DNA of 64,000 nt from an uncultured Candidatus Rokubacteria bacterium (GTDB lineage: Bacteria; Methylomirabilota; Methylomirabilia; Rokubacteriales; DASRDR01): positions 1,280,001 through 1,344,000 of the forward strand of contig CAWDVE010000010.1 of assembly GCA_963805625.1 (NCBI GenBank), given 5' to 3'. The notes beneath the pieces are model-generated. The model was given only the letters and a program-made list of their open reading frames with translations. It was not told the DNA's origin and did no database searches. Below, piece by piece: positions 50,790 through 59,577 of this stretch. How positions within the stretch are numbered: position 1 is the first letter of the stretch; each line of letters starts with the position of its first letter. The position numbers were made by a program, and so were the translations under genes.

Positions 50790-52589
50790 TCACCCGGTGT
50801 CGCTCGGCTCGTGGGCGAGAACGCCGGCCACCAGCCTCGTCATGTCGTCCACGTTGAAGGGCTTGGCCATCAGATAGTCGACCCCGCGCGTGCGCGCCTC
50901 GGTAAAGTCGATCTGGTCTCCCCAGCCTGTAACCAGCGCGATCGCCACGTTCGGCTGAGCTGCACGGAGGCCCTTGGCGACCTCCCAGCCGGAGAGCCCC
51001 GGCATCGACAGGTCGACGAGTGCGAGGTCGAACGCCGGCCCGTCGACGTGCGTCAGCGCCGCCGTGCCGTCCGCACATACCACGACCTCGTGCCCCTGAC
51101 CCTCGAGGACGTCGACCAGCACCTCCCGCACCGCGGCCTCGTCCTCCACCACGAGGATGCGCGCGCTTCGGTCCGCGCGTGGCGCCGGCGGCTCGGGCGG
51201 CGGCGGGAGCACCCCAGCCCCGACCGGCAGGCGCACGGTGAAGCGGCTTCCTTCGCCGGGCTGGCTCCAGACCTCGATCTCCCCGCCGTGGCGCGTCACG
51301 ATGCCGTACGCGATCGACAGGCCGAGACCGGTCCCGTGCTCCGCCTTCGTCGTGAAGAAGGGCTCGAAGCAGCGCTGCCGAACCTCTTCGCTCATGCCGA
51401 CACCGGTGTCCTGGACGATGCACACGACACGATCACCCTCGACCTTCGTCGAGAATGTCAGGGACCCGCCCTGCGGCATCGCGTCGAGCGCATTGAAGAG
51501 CAGGTTCAGGAACGTCTCCCGGAGCTCGGCCGGGTCGCCGGCCACCGGAGGCACCGGGGCGAGGTCGAGCCGCATCGCATACGTCACGGCGCGCGCCTGG
51601 GCCAGGTCGCTCCAGTGCGGCCGGGTCGCTTCAACCACCTCGCGAACCAACTCGGTGACGTCGACGCGCTGCCAGGGACGGGTCCGGCGCATCCGCGCGA
51701 ACTCCTGGATGCGGCGGACCGTCTGGGCGCCGTCCTGGGCGACGTGCTCGATGATCTTGAGCTGCCGGCGTAGATCGGGCGCGTCGATCTGGCGCTGCAG
51801 GAGCTGGGCGCGCCCGAGGACCACGGCGAGGACGTTGTTGAAATCGTGGGCGACACCGCCCGCCATCTCGCCCAGCGCCCGGAGGCGCTCGCTCCGGATG
51901 ATCCGCTGCTGGGACTGCTCAACCGTCACGAGGGCGGCGCGGAGCTCCGCGTAGAGCCGGCTGTTCTCGAGAGCCACTGCACCCTGGGCCGCCAGCGCCA
52001 CCGCGAGGTCCTGGGAGCGCGCGGAGAAGGGGACGGCCCCGCCGGCGATGTCGTCGAGCGACGCGAACCGCCAGCCTCGGTCGGGCTTCCGGTTCATCAG
52101 CTGCAGCACCCCCAGCACCTCGCCCTTCGGGGTCTTCATCGGCACCACGAGCATCGACTTCGTGCGGTAGCTGGTCTCCAGGTCCGGGGCGCGGTCGATC
52201 GTGAACGGCGACCCCGAAGGCGGGGCGTAGGCATCGGCGAGGTTGATGACCTCGCCGCTCAGCGCCGCGTAACCGGGCACGCTCTGGGGGCCGATCGGGA
52301 TGACCTGCTCCTTGACGGCCACCGACACGCTGTCGTTCTGCACGAGCACGGACCGGAGACAGCGCGTGCCGGTCCCATCGGTGTCCACCACGTAGAGGGA
52401 GCCGGCGTCACTCCAGGTGATGTCGCGGGCGGTCGTCAGAATGAGGTCCAGGAGCGCATCGGTGTCCCGCTCCGCGGCAAGCCGGACGCCGATGCCGATC
52501 AGCTCGCGCAGCTCCCGCGTGGCGCGGGCAAGATCGGCCTTCGTCCGCTCGTGGGCGCGTGAGAGCTCTTCGAACCCGGCGCCGCTCAT
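50790..52589 (-). CDS. Hybrid sensor histidine kinase (GAF-HisKA-HATPase-REC)
   Basis: GAF DAGSLY..YRTKSML, AHDFNN, NALDAM, DTGVG, PFFTTK..GTGLGL, VEDE...DLSMP...KPF. Confidence 0.9.
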   Translation of the reverse strand: MSGAGFEELSRAHERTKADLARATRELRELIGIGVRLAAERDTDALLDLILTTARDITWSDAGSLYVVDTDGTGTRCLRSVLVQNDSVSVAVKEQVIPIGPQSVPGYAALSGEVINLADAYAPPSGSPFTIDRAPDLETSYRTKSMLVVPMKTPKGEVLGVLQLMNRKPDRGWRFASLDDIAGGAVPFSARSQDLAVALAAQGAVALENSRLYAELRAALVTVEQSQQRIIRSERLRALGEMAGGVAHDFNNVLAVVLGRAQLLQRQIDAPDLRRQLKIIEHVAQDGAQTVRRIQEFARMRRTRPWQRVDVTELVREVVEATRPHWSDLAQARAVTYAMRLDLAPVPPVAGDPAELRETFLNLLFNALDAMPQGGSLTFSTKVEGDRVVCIVQDTGVGMSEEVRQRCFEPFFTTKAEHGTGLGLSIAYGIVTRHGGEIEVWSQPGEGSRFTVRLPVGAGVLPPPPEPPAPRADRSARILVVEDEAAVREVLVDVLEGQGHEVVVCADGTAALTHVDGPAFDLALVDLSMPGLSGWEVAKGLRAAQPNVAIALVTGWGDQIDFTEARTRGVDYLMAKPFNVDDMTRLVAGVLAHEPSDTG

Positions 52590-52595
52590 CCCACT

Positions 52596-52625
52596 ACGGT
52601 AGGGAGCCGGATATTGCCCTGTCAA
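52596..52625 (-). promoter_or_regulatory. sigma70 promoter of the kinase gene, leaderless
   Basis: TTGACA-N18-TACCGT-N6-ATG(52589). Confidence 0.55.
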
Positions 52626-52657
52626 CGGCCCCCCGGGGCCCCAGCCCTTCCCGGTGC

Positions 52658-52810
52658 TCATCGCCAGGCGAGCGCGGTCACCCCGAAGGCCAGAAGAACC
52701 AGTCCCGACAGTCGGTTGACCCAGCAAAGGGCGCCCAGATCCAGGCGCGCGGAGGGCGCTGACGGCCCCGTTCAGCATCAGCCACCAGAGGGCCGAGCCC
52801 AGGAAGTCGG
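52658..52810 (-). pseudogene. lysE: 3' fragment of a LysE-family translocator
   Basis: FLGSALWWLMLNGAVSALRA, frameshift, then LDLGALCWVNRLSGLVLLAFGVTALAWR*. Confidence 0.75.
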
Positions 52811-52843
52811 TCGACGTGGCATGGTTTGTGCTCCCTCCCGGCC

Positions 52844-53032
52844 ATGAATCCCAAGCGCCAGTCGGTGGCCGAAGCCGACGTATTCCGCGTGCTGACCGAC
52901 CTTCGGAAGGCTGAGCTCGTCCTGGCGACGAACATCGAAAGCACCCCTCCGGATCTCGTTCAGGCGGCGCACCTGGCCGCGATCCGCGCGGCCATCGCCA
53001 AGCTCCACCTGTTCTTCGCCTCGCCCAACTGA
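52844..53032 (+). CDS. Small helical hypothetical protein (paralog A)
   Basis: Aligns with 53240..53443 (QS..EA..R...LR.AE..L...PD...A..L.AIRAAI..L). Confidence 0.6.
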   Translation: MNPKRQSVAEADVFRVLTDLRKAELVLATNIESTPPDLVQAAHLAAIRAAIAKLHLFFASPN

Positions 53033-53239
53033 GCCTCCCCCTCACCGCTCCAGGGCCGTCATCCGCAGTGGGGAAGGAGCCCGGGGATCGCCCCGGGGCT
53101 CCGTGGTCGCGGCCATTTCAACCACCTGCGAGGTCATTTCAGCCCCGGCCCGCGTGCTCGCGGCCGGCGATCATGGCGTCCTCCCGTTGACGGCGGCGCG
53201 CCTCCACGCGGCGGCATCGCCCGTGCTACCCTCGGCGCC

Positions 53240-53443
53240 GTGGAGTCCCCGCGCCTCCAGTCGGCCACGGAAGCCGGCGCCTACCGCCTCCTGCGCGAGG
53301 CCCTCCTCGAACTGCGGCAGGCCGAGCGGACCCTGACGATCCTCGAAGAGGCCGCGCCGGATGTGGAGCGTGCCCTCCTCCTGGTCGCGATCCGGGCGGC
53401 GATCGTCCAACTCGAGGTCTACGTGCGACCGCTGCCGGGCTGA
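53240..53443 (+). CDS. Small helical hypothetical protein (paralog B)
   Basis: Paralog of 52844..53032, preceded by TGCTACCCT extended -10 7 nt before the GTG. Confidence 0.6.
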   Translation: MESPRLQSATEAGAYRLLREALLELRQAERTLTILEEAAPDVERALLLVAIRAAIVQLEVYVRPLPG

Positions 53444-53549
53444 GCCTGCGCGGCAAGCTTCATCAACGCGCCCGCTCCCCCTCGATAGCCCACTCGGCGC
53501 GCGCGGGCTCTCACAGCTCCAGCGCCGCCATCCGCGCGGGCGGCGATCA

Positions 53550-53835
53550 TGGCGTCGCCGCCGGTCTCGCCCGCGCCGGGTCAGCGCGAGGCCGACCAGC
53601 GCCAGCGTCTGGAACGTGGCACTCGCCGGCCCCGGCACGGGGGTGGCGTCGGTCGTGGGCGTCTCCTGGGTGATGAGGGTGACCCCGGCGTGGGCGCCCC
53701 GCACTCGCGGCAGAGCACCCACTCGCCGTCGAGGTGCCGATACACCACGCCCGAGGAGAGTTGCAGGGTGTCGCCGTCGTGGTACCAGCCGAGCGCGGCC
53801 CAATCAATCTCCACCGTCGTCTCTCCGCTTGGCAT
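53550..53835 (-). pseudogene. Frameshifted small protein with CxxC and a PEP-CTERM-like tail
   Basis: MPSGETTVEIDW...WVLCRECG, then in another frame ...TPVPGPASATFQTLALVGLALTRRGRDRRRR. Confidence 0.45.
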
Positions 53836-53907
53836 CGTTTACCGCTTTCCGCATCGTTCGCTCACCGCCCCGGCGGTGTTTCACGCACCGCGCGGGCGGC
53901 ATCCTTG

Positions 53908-54208
53908 CTACGAACCTCTCGGCTGGTCTTCTGACAGGGTTCCTTTCACCGTCGCCGAGAGAGTCGTCGAACCGGAGAGCAAGATCTCAATGAACCCCCC
54001 TGTAATGCGACCCCGGCGTCACGATTCAACCGGACCCAGCCCGATGCTCTATGCCTCGGAGCATCAGTGTCGTCAGCCGCCGGAGCTCGGCGGCCTCCGC
54101 CTGCAACTCTCGGGCGCTCGTCCGATAGTAGAGCCATGACACCAGCCACGTGATCAGCCCGCCGAGAAGGACGCTGACGCCGGTCGACACCCACGAATTC
54201 ATCATCAC
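53908..54208 (-). pseudogene. Single-pass membrane protein, apparently frameshifted twice
   Basis: MNSWVSTGVSVLLGGLITWLVSWLYY..., continuing as SGWVRLNRDAG and RITGGFIEILLSG...* in shifted frames. Overlaps the XRE stop. Confidence 0.45.
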
Positions 54209-54420
54209 TCCAGCAGCGCCGTCACCGGCACGCCGAGGGCCTTGGCGAGGCGCTGGAGGATCACGATGCCGGGACTCTTGTTTCCGCGTGTCCCCGCCTC
54301 AAGCTGGGACAGGTACGGCTGAGAGACGCGCGCTTTCTTCGACAAAGCGGCCTGACTGAGTCTTTGAGTCTGGCGGAGCTTTCGCACCTTCACACCGAAC
54401 CTCACCCTCCGTGGACTCAT
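54205..54420 (-). CDS. XRE-family (Cro/C1-type) HTH transcriptional regulator
   Basis: LSQAALSKKARVSQPYLSQLEAG...PGIVILQRLAKALGV. Confidence 0.85.
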   Translation of the reverse strand: MSPRRVRFGVKVRKLRQTQRLSQAALSKKARVSQPYLSQLEAGTRGNKSPGIVILQRLAKALGVPVTALLE

Positions 54421-54448
54421 GTTATTGCAATCGCAATAGTCATGTCAA
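54419..54448 (-). promoter_or_regulatory. XRE promoter with palindromic operator
   Basis: TTGACA-N18-TAACAT, with TATTGC-N4-GCAATA inverted repeat at 54423-54438 over the spacer. Confidence 0.6.
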
Positions 54449-54466
54449 GGTCTCCATGGGCCTGGT

Positions 54467-54906
54467 CTAGCGGGTGCCTTCCAGCGCCTTGATCCACTCT
54501 TTGACGATGTTGCTCTCGCAGCCGCGGCTGGACATGTTCAACACCTCGGTGCCCGACTCATTGTCGATCAGTGTGATGTCATAGGTGACTGCGGCTCGAA
54601 GTTCGCGATGCAGACGTCGAACTGCTGCCATGCCACCAAGAGGCGGTACCGAGTTCGGAACGTGGCGAACTGCTCAAGCTGCGTCTGCTCACCCGTTGTG
54701 CCGCGAGTGACCTGAGGGCCCCGGTCGGTGGCCAAGCGCCATCCGCGCTGGGCTAGGGCATCCTTCAGGGCGCCGGTGAGGCCCCCGCCGGGCGGGACCG
54801 TCACGGTGCGGGTGGTTAGATCGACGGGTCCATAGGTGCGAACGCGATAGGAACCGCAGGCCGACAGGATGACGAGCGCCACCCCAAGGGTCAATATTCG
54901 TCGCAT
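54467..54906 (-). pseudogene. Lipoprotein with one frameshift (~54590)
   Basis: GGAGGAG SD, lipobox LSAC, continues VTYDITLIDNESGTEVLNMSSRGCESNIVKEWIKALEGTR* in another frame. Confidence 0.6.
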
Positions 54907-54910
54907 GGTT

Positions 54911-55200
54911 TCACTCCTCCACCACCGAGTTGGCATAGGCGATCCAGCGGTCGATCCGGCGCAGCCACTGGTGGAGATGCGGCGGACTGGTCCGGAAGGT
55001 GACCCGGGCGCCATCAAGCCCGAGGCGGCCGAGCTCCGGCGTGAACCGCGTCGTCGTCAGCCCGGGTGGCGGCCGGAGAAAGGCGGCGCGCCAGACCCGC
55101 GACGGAACCGCACTGAGTGCGACCTCGTAGAGCGCCAGGGGACGGCGTGGCCAGCGCGATCGGGTGGGGTGGACGCTGGACCCGGTGGATCGCCACGACC
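54911..55200 (-). pseudogene. Hypothetical protein, 5' end frameshifted
   Basis: Open frame ...PLALYEVALSAVPSRVWRAAFLRPP...WLRRIDRWIAYANSVVEE* lacks an in-frame start. Confidence 0.45.
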
Positions 55201-55389
55201 GTCAGCGCGGCTCAGGGGGCCTGTACCGCCGGAGCGGGTTCACAGTCTGATCGGGCTCCCAGATCGGTACGAGAAGCCATCAGCCATCACCGACAAGGAC
55301 GGGTACGTCCTCGGTATTGCAGCCACACCACAGGATCGCGGGACCTCGGAGAACTCCAACGATGTGCCGCAGGAACGAGTTGTGGAGCG

Positions 55390-56103
55390 TCATTGCTGAG
55401 CAGATCGGGCGCCACGGCGCCACGCGAGCGCGCCGAGCGTCAGCAGACCGCATGCCGTGAGCAGCACGGTCGACGGCTCCGACACCCGCTGCCGGAACAA
55501 CAAAATATCGAAAGCACCAACCCGATCGCGCTCACCGAGGCTGATCGTTTTCTCCATCACTCCGCCGCCACGGTCCGGCAGGTGTTCGACGATGCCGAGC
55601 GCATGACCGATCTCGTGTTTCGCTACGGTGAGGAAGTCGGTCGTTAGCGCGGGTGGCTCGCCTGCGTCGTCCGTCGCCGGAGTCGGATCGAGGAACCACT
55701 GAAGCAACGTGTTGAAGTAGATCTCCCCCTCGGGGAAGTCGGGGGAGTTTCTCGGCGGAGATGGGTACTGCCCCGCCGCCCAGCCGCCTTGAGGGACGGT
55801 GACGCCCGGGATATCTAAGAGATCGTTCGGGGCGCCCACCTCGCCGAACCTCTTGAAGAGATCCGCGTCCTCCCACCGGAGCGTCCAGGTGCCGAGCACC
55901 TGATCGAAGTTCTCGATGAAAGTCTTCCACTCCGAGAGGGCCTCGTTGACGATCGCTTTCTCGGCCTCAGTCCACGGCTTGGCAGGGTGGCCGGCGGTCG
56001 TGCCGGCGTCACCCGGGTTGACGAAGATGACCCCGGCGCGCGCCGGATGCGTGCCGAGCGTGAGTGTCGAGAGGAGAGCAAGGAGAAGGATCGTGGAGAT
56101 CAT
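55390..56103 (-). CDS. Matrixin/metzincin-like Zn metallopeptidase with PEP-CTERM sorting signal
   Basis: Signal peptide, HEIGHALGIVEH, Met-turn GVM, then VSEPSTVLLTACGLLTLGALAWRR. Confidence 0.75.
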   Translation of the reverse strand: MISTILLLALLSTLTLGTHPARAGVIFVNPGDAGTTAGHPAKPWTEAEKAIVNEALSEWKTFIENFDQVLGTWTLRWEDADLFKRFGEVGAPNDLLDIPGVTVPQGGWAAGQYPSPPRNSPDFPEGEIYFNTLLQWFLDPTPATDDAGEPPALTTDFLTVAKHEIGHALGIVEHLPDRGGGVMEKTISLGERDRVGAFDILLFRQRVSEPSTVLLTACGLLTLGALAWRRGARSAQQ

Positions 56104-56222
56104 AACCGGCCCCCTTCAGGGATGGCTGTGCGTGAGTCGCATCGGGGCAACCTCGCGGCCACACGTCCAGCAAGCGCGAGTCGGCCGCGGGCGGCCGGTG
56201 GCGTCGAGCCGGATGGGAGGCG

Positions 56223-57224
56223 TCACTGGATGATCTGGTCCGCTCGGGCCAGGATCGAAGGCGCGATCGTCAGGCCCAGCGCCTTGGCAGTCTTCAGGTT
56301 CACGAACAGGTCAAACTTCGTCGGCTGCTCGACGGGCATGTCGCCGGGCTTCGCCCCCTTGAGGATCTTGTCGACGAACGTCGCGGCGCGCCGCCGAACG
56401 TCGAGCGGGTTCGAGTAGTAGGACATGAGGCCGCCTTCCTCCACCGCATCCCCGTCGTCGTACATCGTGGGCAGGCGGTTCCGGGCCGCGAACTCCAAGA
56501 TGAGGTTAAAGTGCTCGCTGTTGATGGCGCTCCCAAACAGGAAGAGCCCGTCGGCGCGCTCCCGGGTGATGGCCGCCAGGGCCGCCGTCAGCTCGGCCAG
56601 CGTCCTGGCGTCATGGGGCAGGAGCGTCATCCCGAGCTTCGGTGCCACGCGCCGCTGGACGCGGACGTAGGGGTCATAGAGGTTCTCGCTCGAGTACAGC
56701 ACCGCCACCCGCGAGATCCTGGGCACGGCCTCCTTGAAGAGCTCGAGCGCCTCACCGGCGATCTCGAGCTCCGGACTTGAGGTCACCCCAGTCACGTTCC
56801 CGCCGGGCCGGGCGAAGCTCGCCACGAGCCCCCGCCCGACCGGGTCGGCGCTCCCGATGAAGACGATGGGGATCGTGGCCGTCGCCGCCTTGGCGGCTTT
56901 GGCGCTCGTCGAGTTCGCGGCCACGATGACGTCGACCTGGAGCGCGACCAGCTCGGCCGCGAGGGCTGGAAGCCGATCGACCTTCGACTCCGCGAAGCGA
57001 CTCTCGATGACCAAGTCCCGCCCCTCGACGTAGCCCAATTCAAAGAGTCCCTGTCGGAAGGCCACGACGTTAGTCCGGGGGCTGGGCGGTCCGAAGACTG
57101 GGGGCTGGCCGGTGTGCAGAAACCCGATGCGGTGGACCTTTCCCGTCGGCTGGGCCTCGGCGGCGAGCGGCGCGACGAGGAGGGCCAGGACGAGAACCGT
57201 GGTCGTGAACCGGGCAAGCCTCAT
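56223..57224 (-). CDS. Orphan ABC transporter substrate-binding protein (ABC_sub_bind type)
   Basis: AFRQGLFELGYVEG, DPV.RGLVASFARPGGNVTG, KILKGAKPGDMPVEQPTKFDL..NLKTAKALG. Confidence 0.88.
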   Translation of the reverse strand: MRLARFTTTVLVLALLVAPLAAEAQPTGKVHRIGFLHTGQPPVFGPPSPRTNVVAFRQGLFELGYVEGRDLVIESRFAESKVDRLPALAAELVALQVDVIVAANSTSAKAAKAATATIPIVFIGSADPVGRGLVASFARPGGNVTGVTSSPELEIAGEALELFKEAVPRISRVAVLYSSENLYDPYVRVQRRVAPKLGMTLLPHDARTLAELTAALAAITRERADGLFLFGSAINSEHFNLILEFAARNRLPTMYDDGDAVEEGGLMSYYSNPLDVRRRAATFVDKILKGAKPGDMPVEQPTKFDLFVNLKTAKALGLTIAPSILARADQIIQ

Positions 57225-57490
57225 GAAATCCTCCTGTCGTCCAGCACCCGGAGCGCCGACTCAAGGAACCGCCGGAGTTCGGCGTCGCGCGCCGCCAGCC
57301 GGGCGGCCCGGTCTCGTCGATGGAGCGCGGCCCGGCAGCGCCCGGAGCAGACCCGTTGCCCCTCGCGGGGCGGCGCCCCCTCCGGTTGGAGCGGCCGGCC
57401 ACAGACCGGGCACCGCGGGTCCGAGGGTACTACGGGCGGGGCCGGCGTACGTACGCCGCCTGGGCGGCCTGGCGTCCGTCTGGGAACCAT
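57221..57490 (-). CDS. Small Zn-ribbon protein (CxxC...CxxxC), phage-like
   Basis: RCPVCGRPL...RVCSGRCRAA, with a TAAGGAG SD. Confidence 0.6.
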   Translation of the reverse strand: MVPRRTPGRPGGVRTPAPPVVPSDPRCPVCGRPLQPEGAPPREGQRVCSGRCRAALHRRDRAARLAARDAELRRFLESALRVLDDRRIS

Positions 57491-57542
57491 TCTGGGTGAT
57501 CTCCTTACCGGGCCGCGCGCGCCCTGCGGGAGCCGGACGCGG

Positions 57543-57683
57543 TCACGACGGCGACTCCTGGAAGCCGCAGCGCGGGCGCTTCCCCTTCTTCACTTGGGGA
57601 CCCGTCGTCGCCGTCGTCACGCTGTTCTTCGGCGGCGTGTAGTACGGGGTCGGGGTCGGTTTGGGATAACTCGGGCCGCCCAT
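57543..57683 (-). CDS. Small Pro/Thr/Lys-rich hypothetical protein (possibly frameshifted)
   Basis: MGGPSYPKPTPTPYYTPPKN..., starting 2 nt after the upstream stop. Confidence 0.35.
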   Translation of the reverse strand: MGGPSYPKPTPTPYYTPPKNSVTTATTGPQVKKGKRPRCGFQESPS

Positions 57684-57685
57684 GG

Positions 57686-58414
57686 TCAGCGCCGCGCCGT
57701 CGGCGGATCGGCCGGCCACCGCTGCCGCAAGGTTGCGGCATGCTTCGCCCCAAAGTTCTCCGCCACCTTCTGGATCGCGGCCTCGCGGTCCAGGTCGTAG
57801 TACCCCGCAAACTGCTGAATCATCTTCACCGCATTCCCGAGCCCGCTGCCATCGAGCGCCGTCTTGAGCCGGGTCTCCAACTCCGGCGCCAGGCTCTTCA
57901 CCACGCTGAGCACGCGCATCCCTTTCCCGAGCGTCTGCCGGGCCGCGTCCGCCAACCCCTCCGCCTTGATCAACGCGTCCAAGGCCTCGCGGTCGGTCGT
58001 CTGCACGACCCCGATCGCCGCCTCGGGCAGATCCTCCCGGAACCCGCGGATGTAATCCACGAGCGATTGCTGCACCGTGGCCGACACGCCCGCCGCCTGG
58101 CACACCTCGCCGACGACCCGCCCGGTCTCGGGGTCGAGACCCACCAGGGGCGCCGGCGCCGGTCCAGACACCCCGCTGGGCGCGGACGTCGTCCCGGAGA
58201 CCACCCGCAGGAGGCGGTCCATTTCTTCCAGCGCGCCGGGGGCGCCACGCCAGTAGGGGGACGAGGGATCGGCGCGGATCTGCTGGATCCTCTGCTCCGC
58301 CGCGACGCGATTCCCACTCCCACTCGGGGCGGGGGCGCGGGCGGCGGGGGCAAGGGCCGACCCGACGAGCCGCACGCGCTGGACGCCCCCCGGAGAGAGC
58401 TCGATCACCATCAT
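57686..58414 (-). CDS. Hypothetical protein resembling podovirus capsid scaffolding proteins
   Basis: AGGAGG SD, motifs AEQRIQQIRADPSSPYW and LDGSGLGNAVKMIQQFA. Confidence 0.5.
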   Translation of the reverse strand: MMVIELSPGGVQRVRLVGSALAPAARAPAPSGSGNRVAAEQRIQQIRADPSSPYWRGAPGALEEMDRLLRVVSGTTSAPSGVSGPAPAPLVGLDPETGRVVGEVCQAAGVSATVQQSLVDYIRGFREDLPEAAIGVVQTTDREALDALIKAEGLADAARQTLGKGMRVLSVVKSLAPELETRLKTALDGSGLGNAVKMIQQFAGYYDLDREAAIQKVAENFGAKHAATLRQRWPADPPTARR

Positions 58415-58531
58415 GGTCGCCACCTCCTGCTCGCCCTGTATCAGGACGCGCCGAGGGGGCGATCTGGGGAAAACCAGGGTGGCTCGGGTCGCTGGGGGCC
58501 GAGGGCACTCCGGGCCGCGGAGCCGGCGACG

Positions 58532-59261
58532 TTACAGCGGGTCGACCCCCCGGGCGAGGCGGGTGAGGTTGGGACGTTCCGCCGCGAGGAAGGCACGGAG
58601 CGTCTTCCGGTCGAGATGGGCGCGCCGGGCCGCTTCCGCCTGAGACGTGTGGTCCTGGTACAAGCACGTCAGCGCCACGGCCTTCCGGGCCCCGAGGCGC
58701 CCCCGGCCGGCGATGCGGGCCAGGTAGGCGCCCCATCGCGCGGCGCGCGCCGTCCCCTCGACGCGGGGGACGAGCTCCTGCTCCGGGTCCAGGATCTCCT
58801 CGACGGTCGCCTCGAGATCCGGCACGGTGAGCGCTTGCCGCTGCTCGCGCTGCCGCGTGCGCCGGATGCGCGCCTGCTCGGCATTGGTGACATGCCAAAT
58901 CGCCCACGTCGGCTCTAGTCGGATGGCCGGGAGATACTCGACGCGGGCGCGGCGGAGGTCCTCGAGGAAGCCTCGTTCGAGCGCGGCGTCCCACTCCGGG
59001 CGCGCCGGCCCCTGGAGCATCCGCCGCACGGGACTACTCGCGATCCAGTGCGCGGATCGACGCCGTGGCGTCACCTCGAGGTAGCGGGTCAATCGCTCCA
59101 GCACCCGACCCGCGAGCTCGGCGCGCTGCTCGGCCGTGCGCCACAGCCCCTTCTTGTAGAGCGCGAAGAGAAACGGCTGCAGGAGGCGCGCCGGGGGCTG
59201 CGACGCGTCCACCGCGGTCCGCACCTGGTCGAGGATCGAGGCGTCGCGGCGCCGCCGTACC
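58532..59261 (-). CDS. N-truncated protein with C-terminal sigma-region-4-like HTH, fused in frame to the lysE 5' fragment
   Basis: LGARKAVALTCLYQDHTSQAEAARRAHLDRKTLR. No own SD/start inside the island. Confidence 0.5.
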
Positions 59262-59566
59262 TCGGCGGTGACGAGAACCGTTGCCTCCCGCCAGCTTCCC
59301 GCACCCGCGATCCCCAGGCCGGCAAAGACGGCCACGAAGGAGAGGCGCAGGGCGCCCTGCTGCCGCACGAGGAGGCTGGAGACCGCCGTCAGTCCGAAAC
59401 CCGCGATGGCACCGTAAACGGCGCCCGCCGCGGCCGCCCCGAGACCCACCGCAAGCCCCGTCACGCGGCCGTCGGTGAGCGTCCGCCGGATGCACAGGAC
59501 ACCGATCGGGCCGACGGGCGCTGCGATGGAAAAGCCGATCACGACTCCTTGCAGGAGCGTCTCGAG
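59262..59566 (-). pseudogene. lysE: 5' fragment of a LysE-family translocator (with internal deletion)
   Basis: GFSIAAPVGPIGVLCIRRTL..G...GLGAA...YG.IAGFG, then jumps to SFVAVFAGLG...ATVLVT. Confidence 0.8.
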
Positions 59567-59577
59567 TCTCCGAAGAC

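Follow-up and report, generated by a model that had tools for sequence, protein, structure and literature searches.

A 6.46-kb DNA fragment probably captured by break repair in lysE of an uncultured Rokubacteria genome, and its candidate satellite-like parent family

The 64,000-nucleotide stretch of an uncultured Candidatus Rokubacteria bacterium analyzed here (the window, whose positions are used throughout unless a contig is named) contains, between positions 52,658 and 59,566, a lysE gene disrupted by a 6.46-kb insert, with lysE pieces on the minus strand at both flanks. This insert, referred to as the island, is probably an internal mosaic fragment of a satellite-like element family; end-joining or microhomology repair would have captured it once, and it has likely lost its mobility. 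A preliminary description of the same DNA had proposed an integrase-less island bounded by the four-base repeat TCGG, either a non-autonomous element or a fragment captured by microhomology recombination. Capture of a fragment emerged as the best reading: the absence of a target duplication, the loss of only 4–8 target bases, a left end inside a gene, the lack of an attachment (att) site, a single occurrence and a dead target gene together fit a one-off break-repair event.

The window sits on contig C10 of its own assembly (G000; 7.27 Mb in 28 contigs, ∼70% GC), a mixed-strain bin with 6.26% contamination. Both lysE pieces were confirmed at the positions and on the strand first given for them; the LysE protein of an intact relative matched both by tblastn, and the Pfam LysE profile matched the 5′ piece with an E-value of 0.0019, under the curated cut-off. 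Left-flank DNA found matches in 37 of 61 genomes and in all 14 genus relatives, and loci were recovered from 13 of the 14. In 12 of these 13 relatives the two flanks adjoin within one 3–4-kb locus with no island between them, providing the empty-site comparison initially called for. The right junction is bridged by short-read contigs in at least three of four runs (52621–52920, 52393–52975, and 52772–53024) and the left junction in at least two (59009–59312 and 58813–59506), with 0–5 differences from the window; the runs span three studies, one run is possibly the source sample, and the counts derive from the contigs listed. With junction-spanning contigs from three studies and adjacent flanks in 12 of 13 relatives, the insertion is real and not an assembly chimera. 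Strain heterogeneity in the bin would favor a chimera or two different lysE paralogues. Against this reading, which the bridging contigs refute, relatives have a single gene to which both pieces and both flanks map, and the assembly’s one other LysE-like gene is 31% identical; its chance is negligible.

The word TCGG is present at both junctions, as first noted (59262–59265 and 52807–52810), where it had been taken for a recombination site that would restore lysE on excision. The insertion site could be anchored in 6 of 20 loci, on which the reading of the empty allele rests. In none of these six does TCGG occur, and the nine site bases encode Ala-Gly-Val. Excision from TCGG to TCGG would instead yield Thr-Ala-Asp, a product of the correct length and the wrong sequence with four of nine bases different (P of about 6e-4 given ∼5% lineage divergence), which argues against the repeat as a restoring site. 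When reads were placed on a relative’s allele, host sequence was found to break after base 2382 and resume at 2387 with loss of GTGT, so that the host bases lost number four, or eight if the preceding four bases are element-derived. With the repeat in 0 of 6 anchored empty alleles and 4–8 target bases lost, TCGG does not behave as a target duplication. Homologues of orfA, the gene at the left junction, read (S/A)-A-E-V at this point, with the left TCGG forming part of the Ala-Glu codons, and the left copy is therefore element sequence. Both copies thus belong to the island, with no target-site duplication. TCGG occurs 58 times on one island strand, and in random cuts the four bases at one end matched those at the other in 0.7% of cases without slippage, a share that rose to 2.7% when one base of slip was allowed and to 5.6% for two bases. 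Coincidence would be an acceptable, not an overwhelming, explanation for the word at both ends, and it is the chief loose end. The preliminary description had also suggested looking for reads across an excised or circular junction; no such joint appeared among those listed for four runs. Among the contigs listed there was no longer allele at the lysE site and no empty close allele, the latter not showing that one is absent.

The target gene itself is dead through four lesions, namely the insertion and three deletions. A 2-base deletion near 59571 removed the start codon; at 59342–59345, 80 bases from the junction, 144 bp have been lost in frame, with microhomology of 4 bases; and the 3′ piece is frameshifted by a 2-base deletion near 52750. 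All three deletions are visible in short-read contigs, while their order relative to the insertion is something we infer. Excision of the island would not restore lysE. Among the 13 genus loci LysE is full-length in five, broken in four, and undetected in four; as a target for insertion the gene is dispensable and neutral. The 5′ piece reads in frame into orfA′, and the two were called as a single 336-aa protein. Selection on this LysE::orfA fusion was considered and found no support, as window-specific changes in the lysE pieces comprised 6 non-synonymous and 12 synonymous (124 codons), compared with 12 and 28 in 399 codons of two intact neighbor genes used as a control.

The preliminary description held that the island lacks integrase, transposase, terminase, and capsid genes, and wider searches agreed. 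No such family was matched at a meaningful E-value by the main island open reading frames (ORFs) in Pfam, PHROGs, or NCBIfam, nor by any of 39 alternative-frame ORFs in Pfam, and the integrase, primase, and helicase of sibling elements gave best E-values of 0.05–0.2 against the island by tblastn. Family scans and tblastn likewise found no replication gene in the island. Within it, no att core and no piece of a tRNA exceeded the length expected by chance, Rfam gave no matches, and neither att-like nor inverted terminal repeats were detected. No second insertion with the island’s ends was present in its own assembly or in five close relatives (samples, several of them incomplete). A start inside a gene, the missing att core, and the lack of a second insertion speak against the earlier suggestion of a discrete non-autonomous element.

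The evidence that the island begins inside a gene comes from orfA. Four database homologues are 53–65% identical to it, and the three that span the junction region run 80–120 residues further upstream, so the gene is cut by the junction. For the same reason a circle opened five codons into orfA was rejected. The family resembles TIGR02937 (E of 5e-5, far under the cut-off) and received an Atlas feature score of 0.95 for an extracytoplasmic function (ECF)-sigma-like C-terminal helix-turn-helix (HTH); the fold predicted for a homologue was of low confidence (mean predicted local distance difference test [pLDDT] of 52), and its PDB matches, with E-values >0.1, were mostly sigma factors. None of 20 family genomes contained orfA, and its native context was not found, a single 34% match in a Gemmatimonadetes contig being uninformative; a viral collection counted two matches. 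At the opposite end a truncated gene start (ATG at 52822) was considered and found weak, as a relative is conserved only to 52836 and then diverges. From the left junction to the right, the features of the interrupted locus are as follows.

59266–59573, minus strand: lysE 5′ piece, a pseudogene (start lost near 59571; 144-bp deletion at 59342–59345).
59262–59269, minus strand: left junction; host ends at 59266 or 59270 (ambiguous), and the TCGG at 59262–59265 belongs to the island.
58532–59265, minus strand: orfA′, a putative 5′-truncated regulator fused in frame to the lysE 5′ piece, with a weak ECF-sigma-like C-terminal HTH.
57686–58414, minus strand: predicted scaffold-like protein of the podovirus capsid-assembly type in permuted order, starting with the hairpin and lacking the phage N-domain.
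57543–57683, minus strand: 46-aa proline-rich ORF; each of the two sibling elements has a homologue 3′ of its scaffold-like gene.
57221–57490, minus strand: zinc-ribbon ORF, weak matches only.
56223–57224, minus strand: ABC-type substrate-binding protein (PF04392, E of 4e-51).
55390–56103, minus strand: M10-like metallopeptidase, secreted, that ends in a sorting-like tail (labeled PEP-CTERM by eye; no NCBIfam match).
54911–55196, minus strand: orfF, 94-aa family ORF with an extra base at 55138 in the window; the C13 copy is intact, and further variable loci, several in number, hold homologues.
54467–54906, minus strand: putative lipoprotein, split near 54592, where one contig has an extra base.
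54205–54420, minus strand: XRE-type HTH regulator (HTH_3, E of 4e-12).
54026–54205, minus strand: small membrane ORF.
53550–53814, minus strand: mini-gene with a frameshift; over 36 aa it shares 50% identity with a PEP-CTERM-like mini-gene in the C10 sibling.
53240–53443, plus strand: orfK, small helical ORF with homologues in four genus relatives.
52844–53032, plus strand: orfL, tandem paralogue of orfK.
52807–52810, minus strand: right junction; TCGG forms the final four island bases, and host sequence runs from 52806.
52658–52806, minus strand: lysE 3′ piece; the loss of 2 bases near 52750 shifts its frame.
54911–58357, no strand assigned: shared block, 98.55% identical to G000:C13:2904–6351.

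The island appears to be a mosaic. Its shared block differs from that of contig C13 at 50 of 3449 alignment columns, spread along the block, and the C13 homology ends ∼15 codons into the scaffold-like gene, marking an internal junction near 58370. In the right 2.1 kb lie small modules, which turn up again at variable loci within the genus, and decay within the island is apparent from this junction and from frameshifts at 55138, 54592, and near 53680. Overall its gene order follows the middle of 13–14-kb tRNA-integrated elements in the same assembly, with both of their ends missing. The preliminary description’s co-oriented cargo holds for most genes, which are on the minus strand, and fails for the mini-genes at 53240–53443 and 52844–53032, on the opposite strand. 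Its “PEP-CTERM peptidase” stands as a secreted M10-like metallopeptidase with a sorting-like tail, the PEP-CTERM assignment itself finding no match in NCBIfam. The orfK/orfL region (52844–53560) is a ∼400-base tandem duplication carrying two paralogous small genes, the first of which has no ribosome-binding site and may be leaderless; a 28-base motif 3′ of each copy recurs at C10:1973081, on contig C25, and in a relative. The orfF family, which has no family match, occurs in at least nine places in the assembly, several beside an XRE gene, and in relatives as well. Orphan paralogues of the PF04392 binding protein number in the dozens throughout the assembly and the genus, where they cluster in variable regions. 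Assignment of the proline-rich ORF as a pre-portal phage protein was unsupported (E of 0.74).

The nature of the donor was indicated by longer relatives of the cargo carrying an integrase, which the preliminary description had proposed seeking and of which two were found in the same assembly. The C13 element extends 14.2 kb from the contig start to a tRNA-Val (C13:1–14280) and encodes a tyrosine integrase (PF00589/PHROG 1; its C10 homologue is 42% identical), an XRE regulator, the shared block, a primase-polymerase-AAA_25 gene (Prim-Pol, PriCT_1, and AAA_25 domains), and HTH_17 excisionase-like genes. Its integrase-side att presumably lies beyond the contig end, to judge from C25, where a different element (C25:1561–14823) with a 46-bp repeat occupies the same tRNA-Val site. 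The two contigs overlap by 1,637 identical bases, a strain-level polymorphism at one tRNA-Val site; the C25 cargo by eye resembles LigD-domain and ferritin-like genes, and its integrase is frameshifted. The C13 integrase and the binding protein were each grouped in clustering with a protein encoded on a 16,917-base contig in a different record. The second element (C10:522477–535510; L023) spans 13.0 kb between perfect 39-bp tRNA-Leu repeats with a C13-like layout, and is apparently complete and the best specimen of the family. It carries an integrase, a primase, an AAA_25 helicase, a hairpin-first scaffold gene, a homologous small gene, and an internal virion protein homologue (PHROG 418, E of 4.7e-15). 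Both elements follow the order regulator, excisionase-like gene, primase/helicase, scaffold-like gene, cargo, XRE, and integrase, the integrase reading toward the adjacent att (1213 to 35 in C13; 524127 to 523084 in C10, with att at 522477). Their regulators comprise HTH_17/PHROG 66 excisionase-regulator genes and XRE, with no AlpA, MerR, or Stl family matched, and a 174-aa ORF 3′ of the primase, in a position like that of the small terminase subunit (TerS), matches no family. No capsid, portal, or tail gene was found among 23 ORFs of the two elements, although divergent genes could escape such a search. The donor of the cargo resembles a satellite-type element more than it does a prophage, and from their gene content the parent elements may be phage satellites. 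The earlier proposal of an uncharacterised satellite-like family as the source of the cargo is borne out by the 98.55% block in the C13 element and the att-flanked C10 sibling.

A profile of the scaffold-like family was positive in 11 of 251 genomes of the phylum, the window’s own included. Among the 10 other loci, six contain an integrase or fragment, four a primase or helicase, and one a terminase large subunit; no major capsid or portal gene was matched among 80 selected ORFs, several of the contigs ending mid-element. Two of these loci have att-like repeats, spanning 12.9 kb (49 bp) and 12.8 kb (just 14 bp). The locus L078 (G165:C76:1736–14546; 12.8 kb) lies beside a tRNA-Val with two tyrosine integrases and no capsid or portal match, and its terminase large subunit gene (PHROG 2, E of 1.5e-25) adjoins the scaffold-like gene. 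In L086 (G042:C106) a serine integrase replaces the tyrosine integrase, with endonuclease VII and DNA methyltransferase matches. A 350–415-aa helical gene of no known family, with 22–38% mutual identity, is found directly upstream of the scaffold-like gene in L079, L081, and L083, and an unrelated 257-aa helical gene occupies this position in the elements of the window’s genome; the gene upstream of the C13 scaffold had no Atlas match. These upstream genes are candidates for head-remodeling partners. A 504-aa ORF of genome G168 was considered as a terminase and was unsupported by pairwise comparison and family scans. A further 13-kb integrase island (C10:340772–353892) has a 45-bp repeat resembling a tRNA end, where ARAGORN lists none, and cargo unrelated to the scaffold family. 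A podovirus helper of the PHROG 3742/458 type was not found in the assembly, a portal family scan of the same genome found none, though its control matched nowhere either, and no locus on a viral contig was returned.

The guess that one island gene is scaffold-like proved right. In a profile search of 1.8 billion proteins there were 45 matches, many of them full-length PHROG 3742/458 proteins, one of which matched 149 phage records; in two annotated podoviruses the homologue lies between the portal and the major capsid protein. Part profiles for the N-domain, core, and hairpin were built from 15 full-length matches, and the phage order N-domain, core, hairpin was also seen in two annotated phage proteins outside this training set. 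The window protein matched the hairpin (E of 7e-13) and core (E of 3e-4) profiles, and the C10 sibling scaffold matched the core at 5e-16 (E-values for 46 sequences); the C10 sibling alone, and not the window protein, matched a PHROG directly. In the window protein and its siblings the hairpin precedes the core, and the N-domain is absent. Among 31 non-training proteins the hairpin precedes the core in 17 (four with one after it too) and does not in 14, with the N-domain in none, the 45 matches having been chosen by likeness to the query and the genomic context of most not being established. The permutation is not universal, as four of seven other phylum members have the core without an N-terminal hairpin match. 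The fold model of the window protein (pLDDT of 70; hairpin >90) is confident for the hairpin only and retrieved no structure from PDB or BFVD at an E-value of 0.001. By these profile matches the protein is predicted to be a homologue of podovirus capsid-assembly proteins with the C-terminal hairpin shifted to the N terminus. The SaPI (Staphylococcus aureus pathogenicity island) protein CpmB binds coat protein through a C-terminal motif common to phage scaffold and with it switches capsids to T=4 in place of T=7 (PMC6893505), and by analogy the hairpin may bind coat protein. Known satellites are about one-third of helper size (PMC9618062), a ratio that the 13–14-kb elements fit against phages carrying a PHROG 3742-type protein (33.6–41.7 kb among 25 listed). 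The parent family may thus hijack phage heads via a permuted scaffold.

The favored course of events begins with a break in the dispensable lysE that would have been patched by a 6.46-kb fragment of the satellite family. Parent elements would most likely excise at their tRNA att and replicate through their own primase-helicase, and judging from homology and size a podovirus of the BPP-1/HTVC010P type would package them, the permuted scaffold competing for helper coat protein. The 144-bp deletion with 4-base microhomology indicates that such repair occurs at lysE. Ku is encoded twice in the assembly and the ligase C-domain four times, one copy lying beside a Ku and two in frames of 904 and 925 aa that are presumably LigD. 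Capture of foreign DNA with end deletions through non-homologous end joining (NHEJ) is described in Sinorhizobium (PMC6379672). Several observations weigh against capture. The island’s terminal four bases are identical and, on one reading, exactly four target bases are gone; at 0.7–5.6% the identity is improbable enough by chance for an enzyme-made junction to deserve consideration. The near-identical donor covers just 3.45 of 6.46 kb, the ends match no element examined, and donor sequence past either end was not recovered, which leaves junction microhomology hypothetical. The part played by Ku and the ligases is a presumed one, and in a mixed-strain bin, where C13 and C25 differ at one tRNA, the C13 copy need not share a cell with the island.

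In coupling-sequence style recombination, a short non-homologous overlap is exchanged with the target. A non-autonomous mini-element of this kind, a deletion circle closed at TCGG and moved in trans by a sibling recombinase, is the least unlikely of the alternatives and nevertheless improbable: it would account for the same four bases at both island ends and the four missing target bases, and the assembly encodes several tyrosine integrases, but the joint would fall within orfA, whose homologues reach far upstream, family integrases use tRNA ends, and the island has no att-like or inverted terminal repeats, no second site in its own assembly or in five relatives, and no circular joint among those listed for four runs. 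Ranking after it, and doubtful, is mis-integration of a full element in lysE with later trimming of both ends, including the integrase and replication module. The decay inside the island and in lysE would suit such a history, although both deletions must have halted within 4–8 bases of the original site, and neither an att remnant nor, among the contigs listed, a longer allele was seen. Less likely again is replicative template switching that copied the segment from a resident element of the same cell. A 98.55% copy of the island middle is indeed in the assembly, and the in-frame left fusion is compatible with a short shared codon; against this, the island ends (3.0 kb) have no donor there, and the 50 spread differences suggest a sister element rather than a fresh copy. 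One-off capture by repair remains the probable origin.

The five core features of phage-inducible chromosomal islands (PICIs; PMC10085698) provided a yardstick. The C13 and C10 elements have an integrase with att repeats and a primase-replicase module, both absent from the island, which holds no core genes but the scaffold-like gene and XRE. For the other three features, an AlpA, MerR or Stl regulator, a capsid-morphogenesis gene and a small terminase, the parents offer putative counterparts at most, namely the HTH_17 and XRE genes, the scaffold homologue in place of a capsid protein, and the 174-aa ORF. Like PICIs and SaPIs, the parent elements are ∼13–14 kb, with an att repeat, tyrosine integrase, HTH regulators, primase-helicase, and no capsid or portal gene found, and their scaffold-derived gene parallels CpmB as reported for SaPIs (PMC6893505). 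In contrast to them, the integrase and the regulator/replication module occupy opposite ends, the scaffold belongs to the podovirus type (PHROG 3742/458) with an N-terminal hairpin, one member has an internal virion protein and one a terminase large subunit, and TerS or AlpA/Stl matches are lacking. As described for tycheposons (bioRxiv 10.1101/2020.12.28.424599), a tRNA tyrosine integrase lies at one end, a replication module at the other and cargo between, and degenerate fragments persist in the genome; unlike the inward tycheposon integrase, that of both own-genome elements points outward, and for packaging the parents have a scaffold gene instead of one for a major capsid protein or TerS. 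VEIMEs (PMC9618062) are likewise capsid-less integrative elements, <17 kb, with integrase, primase/helicase, and excisionase. They are reported to be packaged as concatemers in full-size heads, whereas the parents are known from their genes, and the word “scaffold” is absent from the main text of that report. The NHEJ captures (PMC6379672) share with the island the lack of target duplication, small end deletions, and a host with several Ku and LigD genes; they followed an engineered break, while the lysE event is read from junction anatomy. The BPP-1/HTVC010P/VP2-type capsid assembly protein (PHROG 3742/458) is homologous in core and helical hairpin and differs in order, being N-domain-core-hairpin as opposed to hairpin-core without the N-domain in the island and its siblings. 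In the literature listings searched, no title or abstract opening described satellites with a permuted podovirus scaffold or satellites in Rokubacteria.

The island itself is a remnant of an ordinary sort whose repeat is deceptive, and the novelty lies in the parent satellite-like family. As a natural example, it illustrates mobile DNA stranded in a gene without a recombinase signature, and how a 4-base junction repeat can mislead unless compared with the empty allele. The capsid-redirecting satellites reviewed employ other devices or act on other phage types, and the putative permuted podovirus scaffold would offer a small, expressible protein for testing capsid-size control in a very common environmental podovirus type. 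The parent family would be the first satellite family of this uncultured soil and sediment lineage and would supply a marker gene for its helpers.

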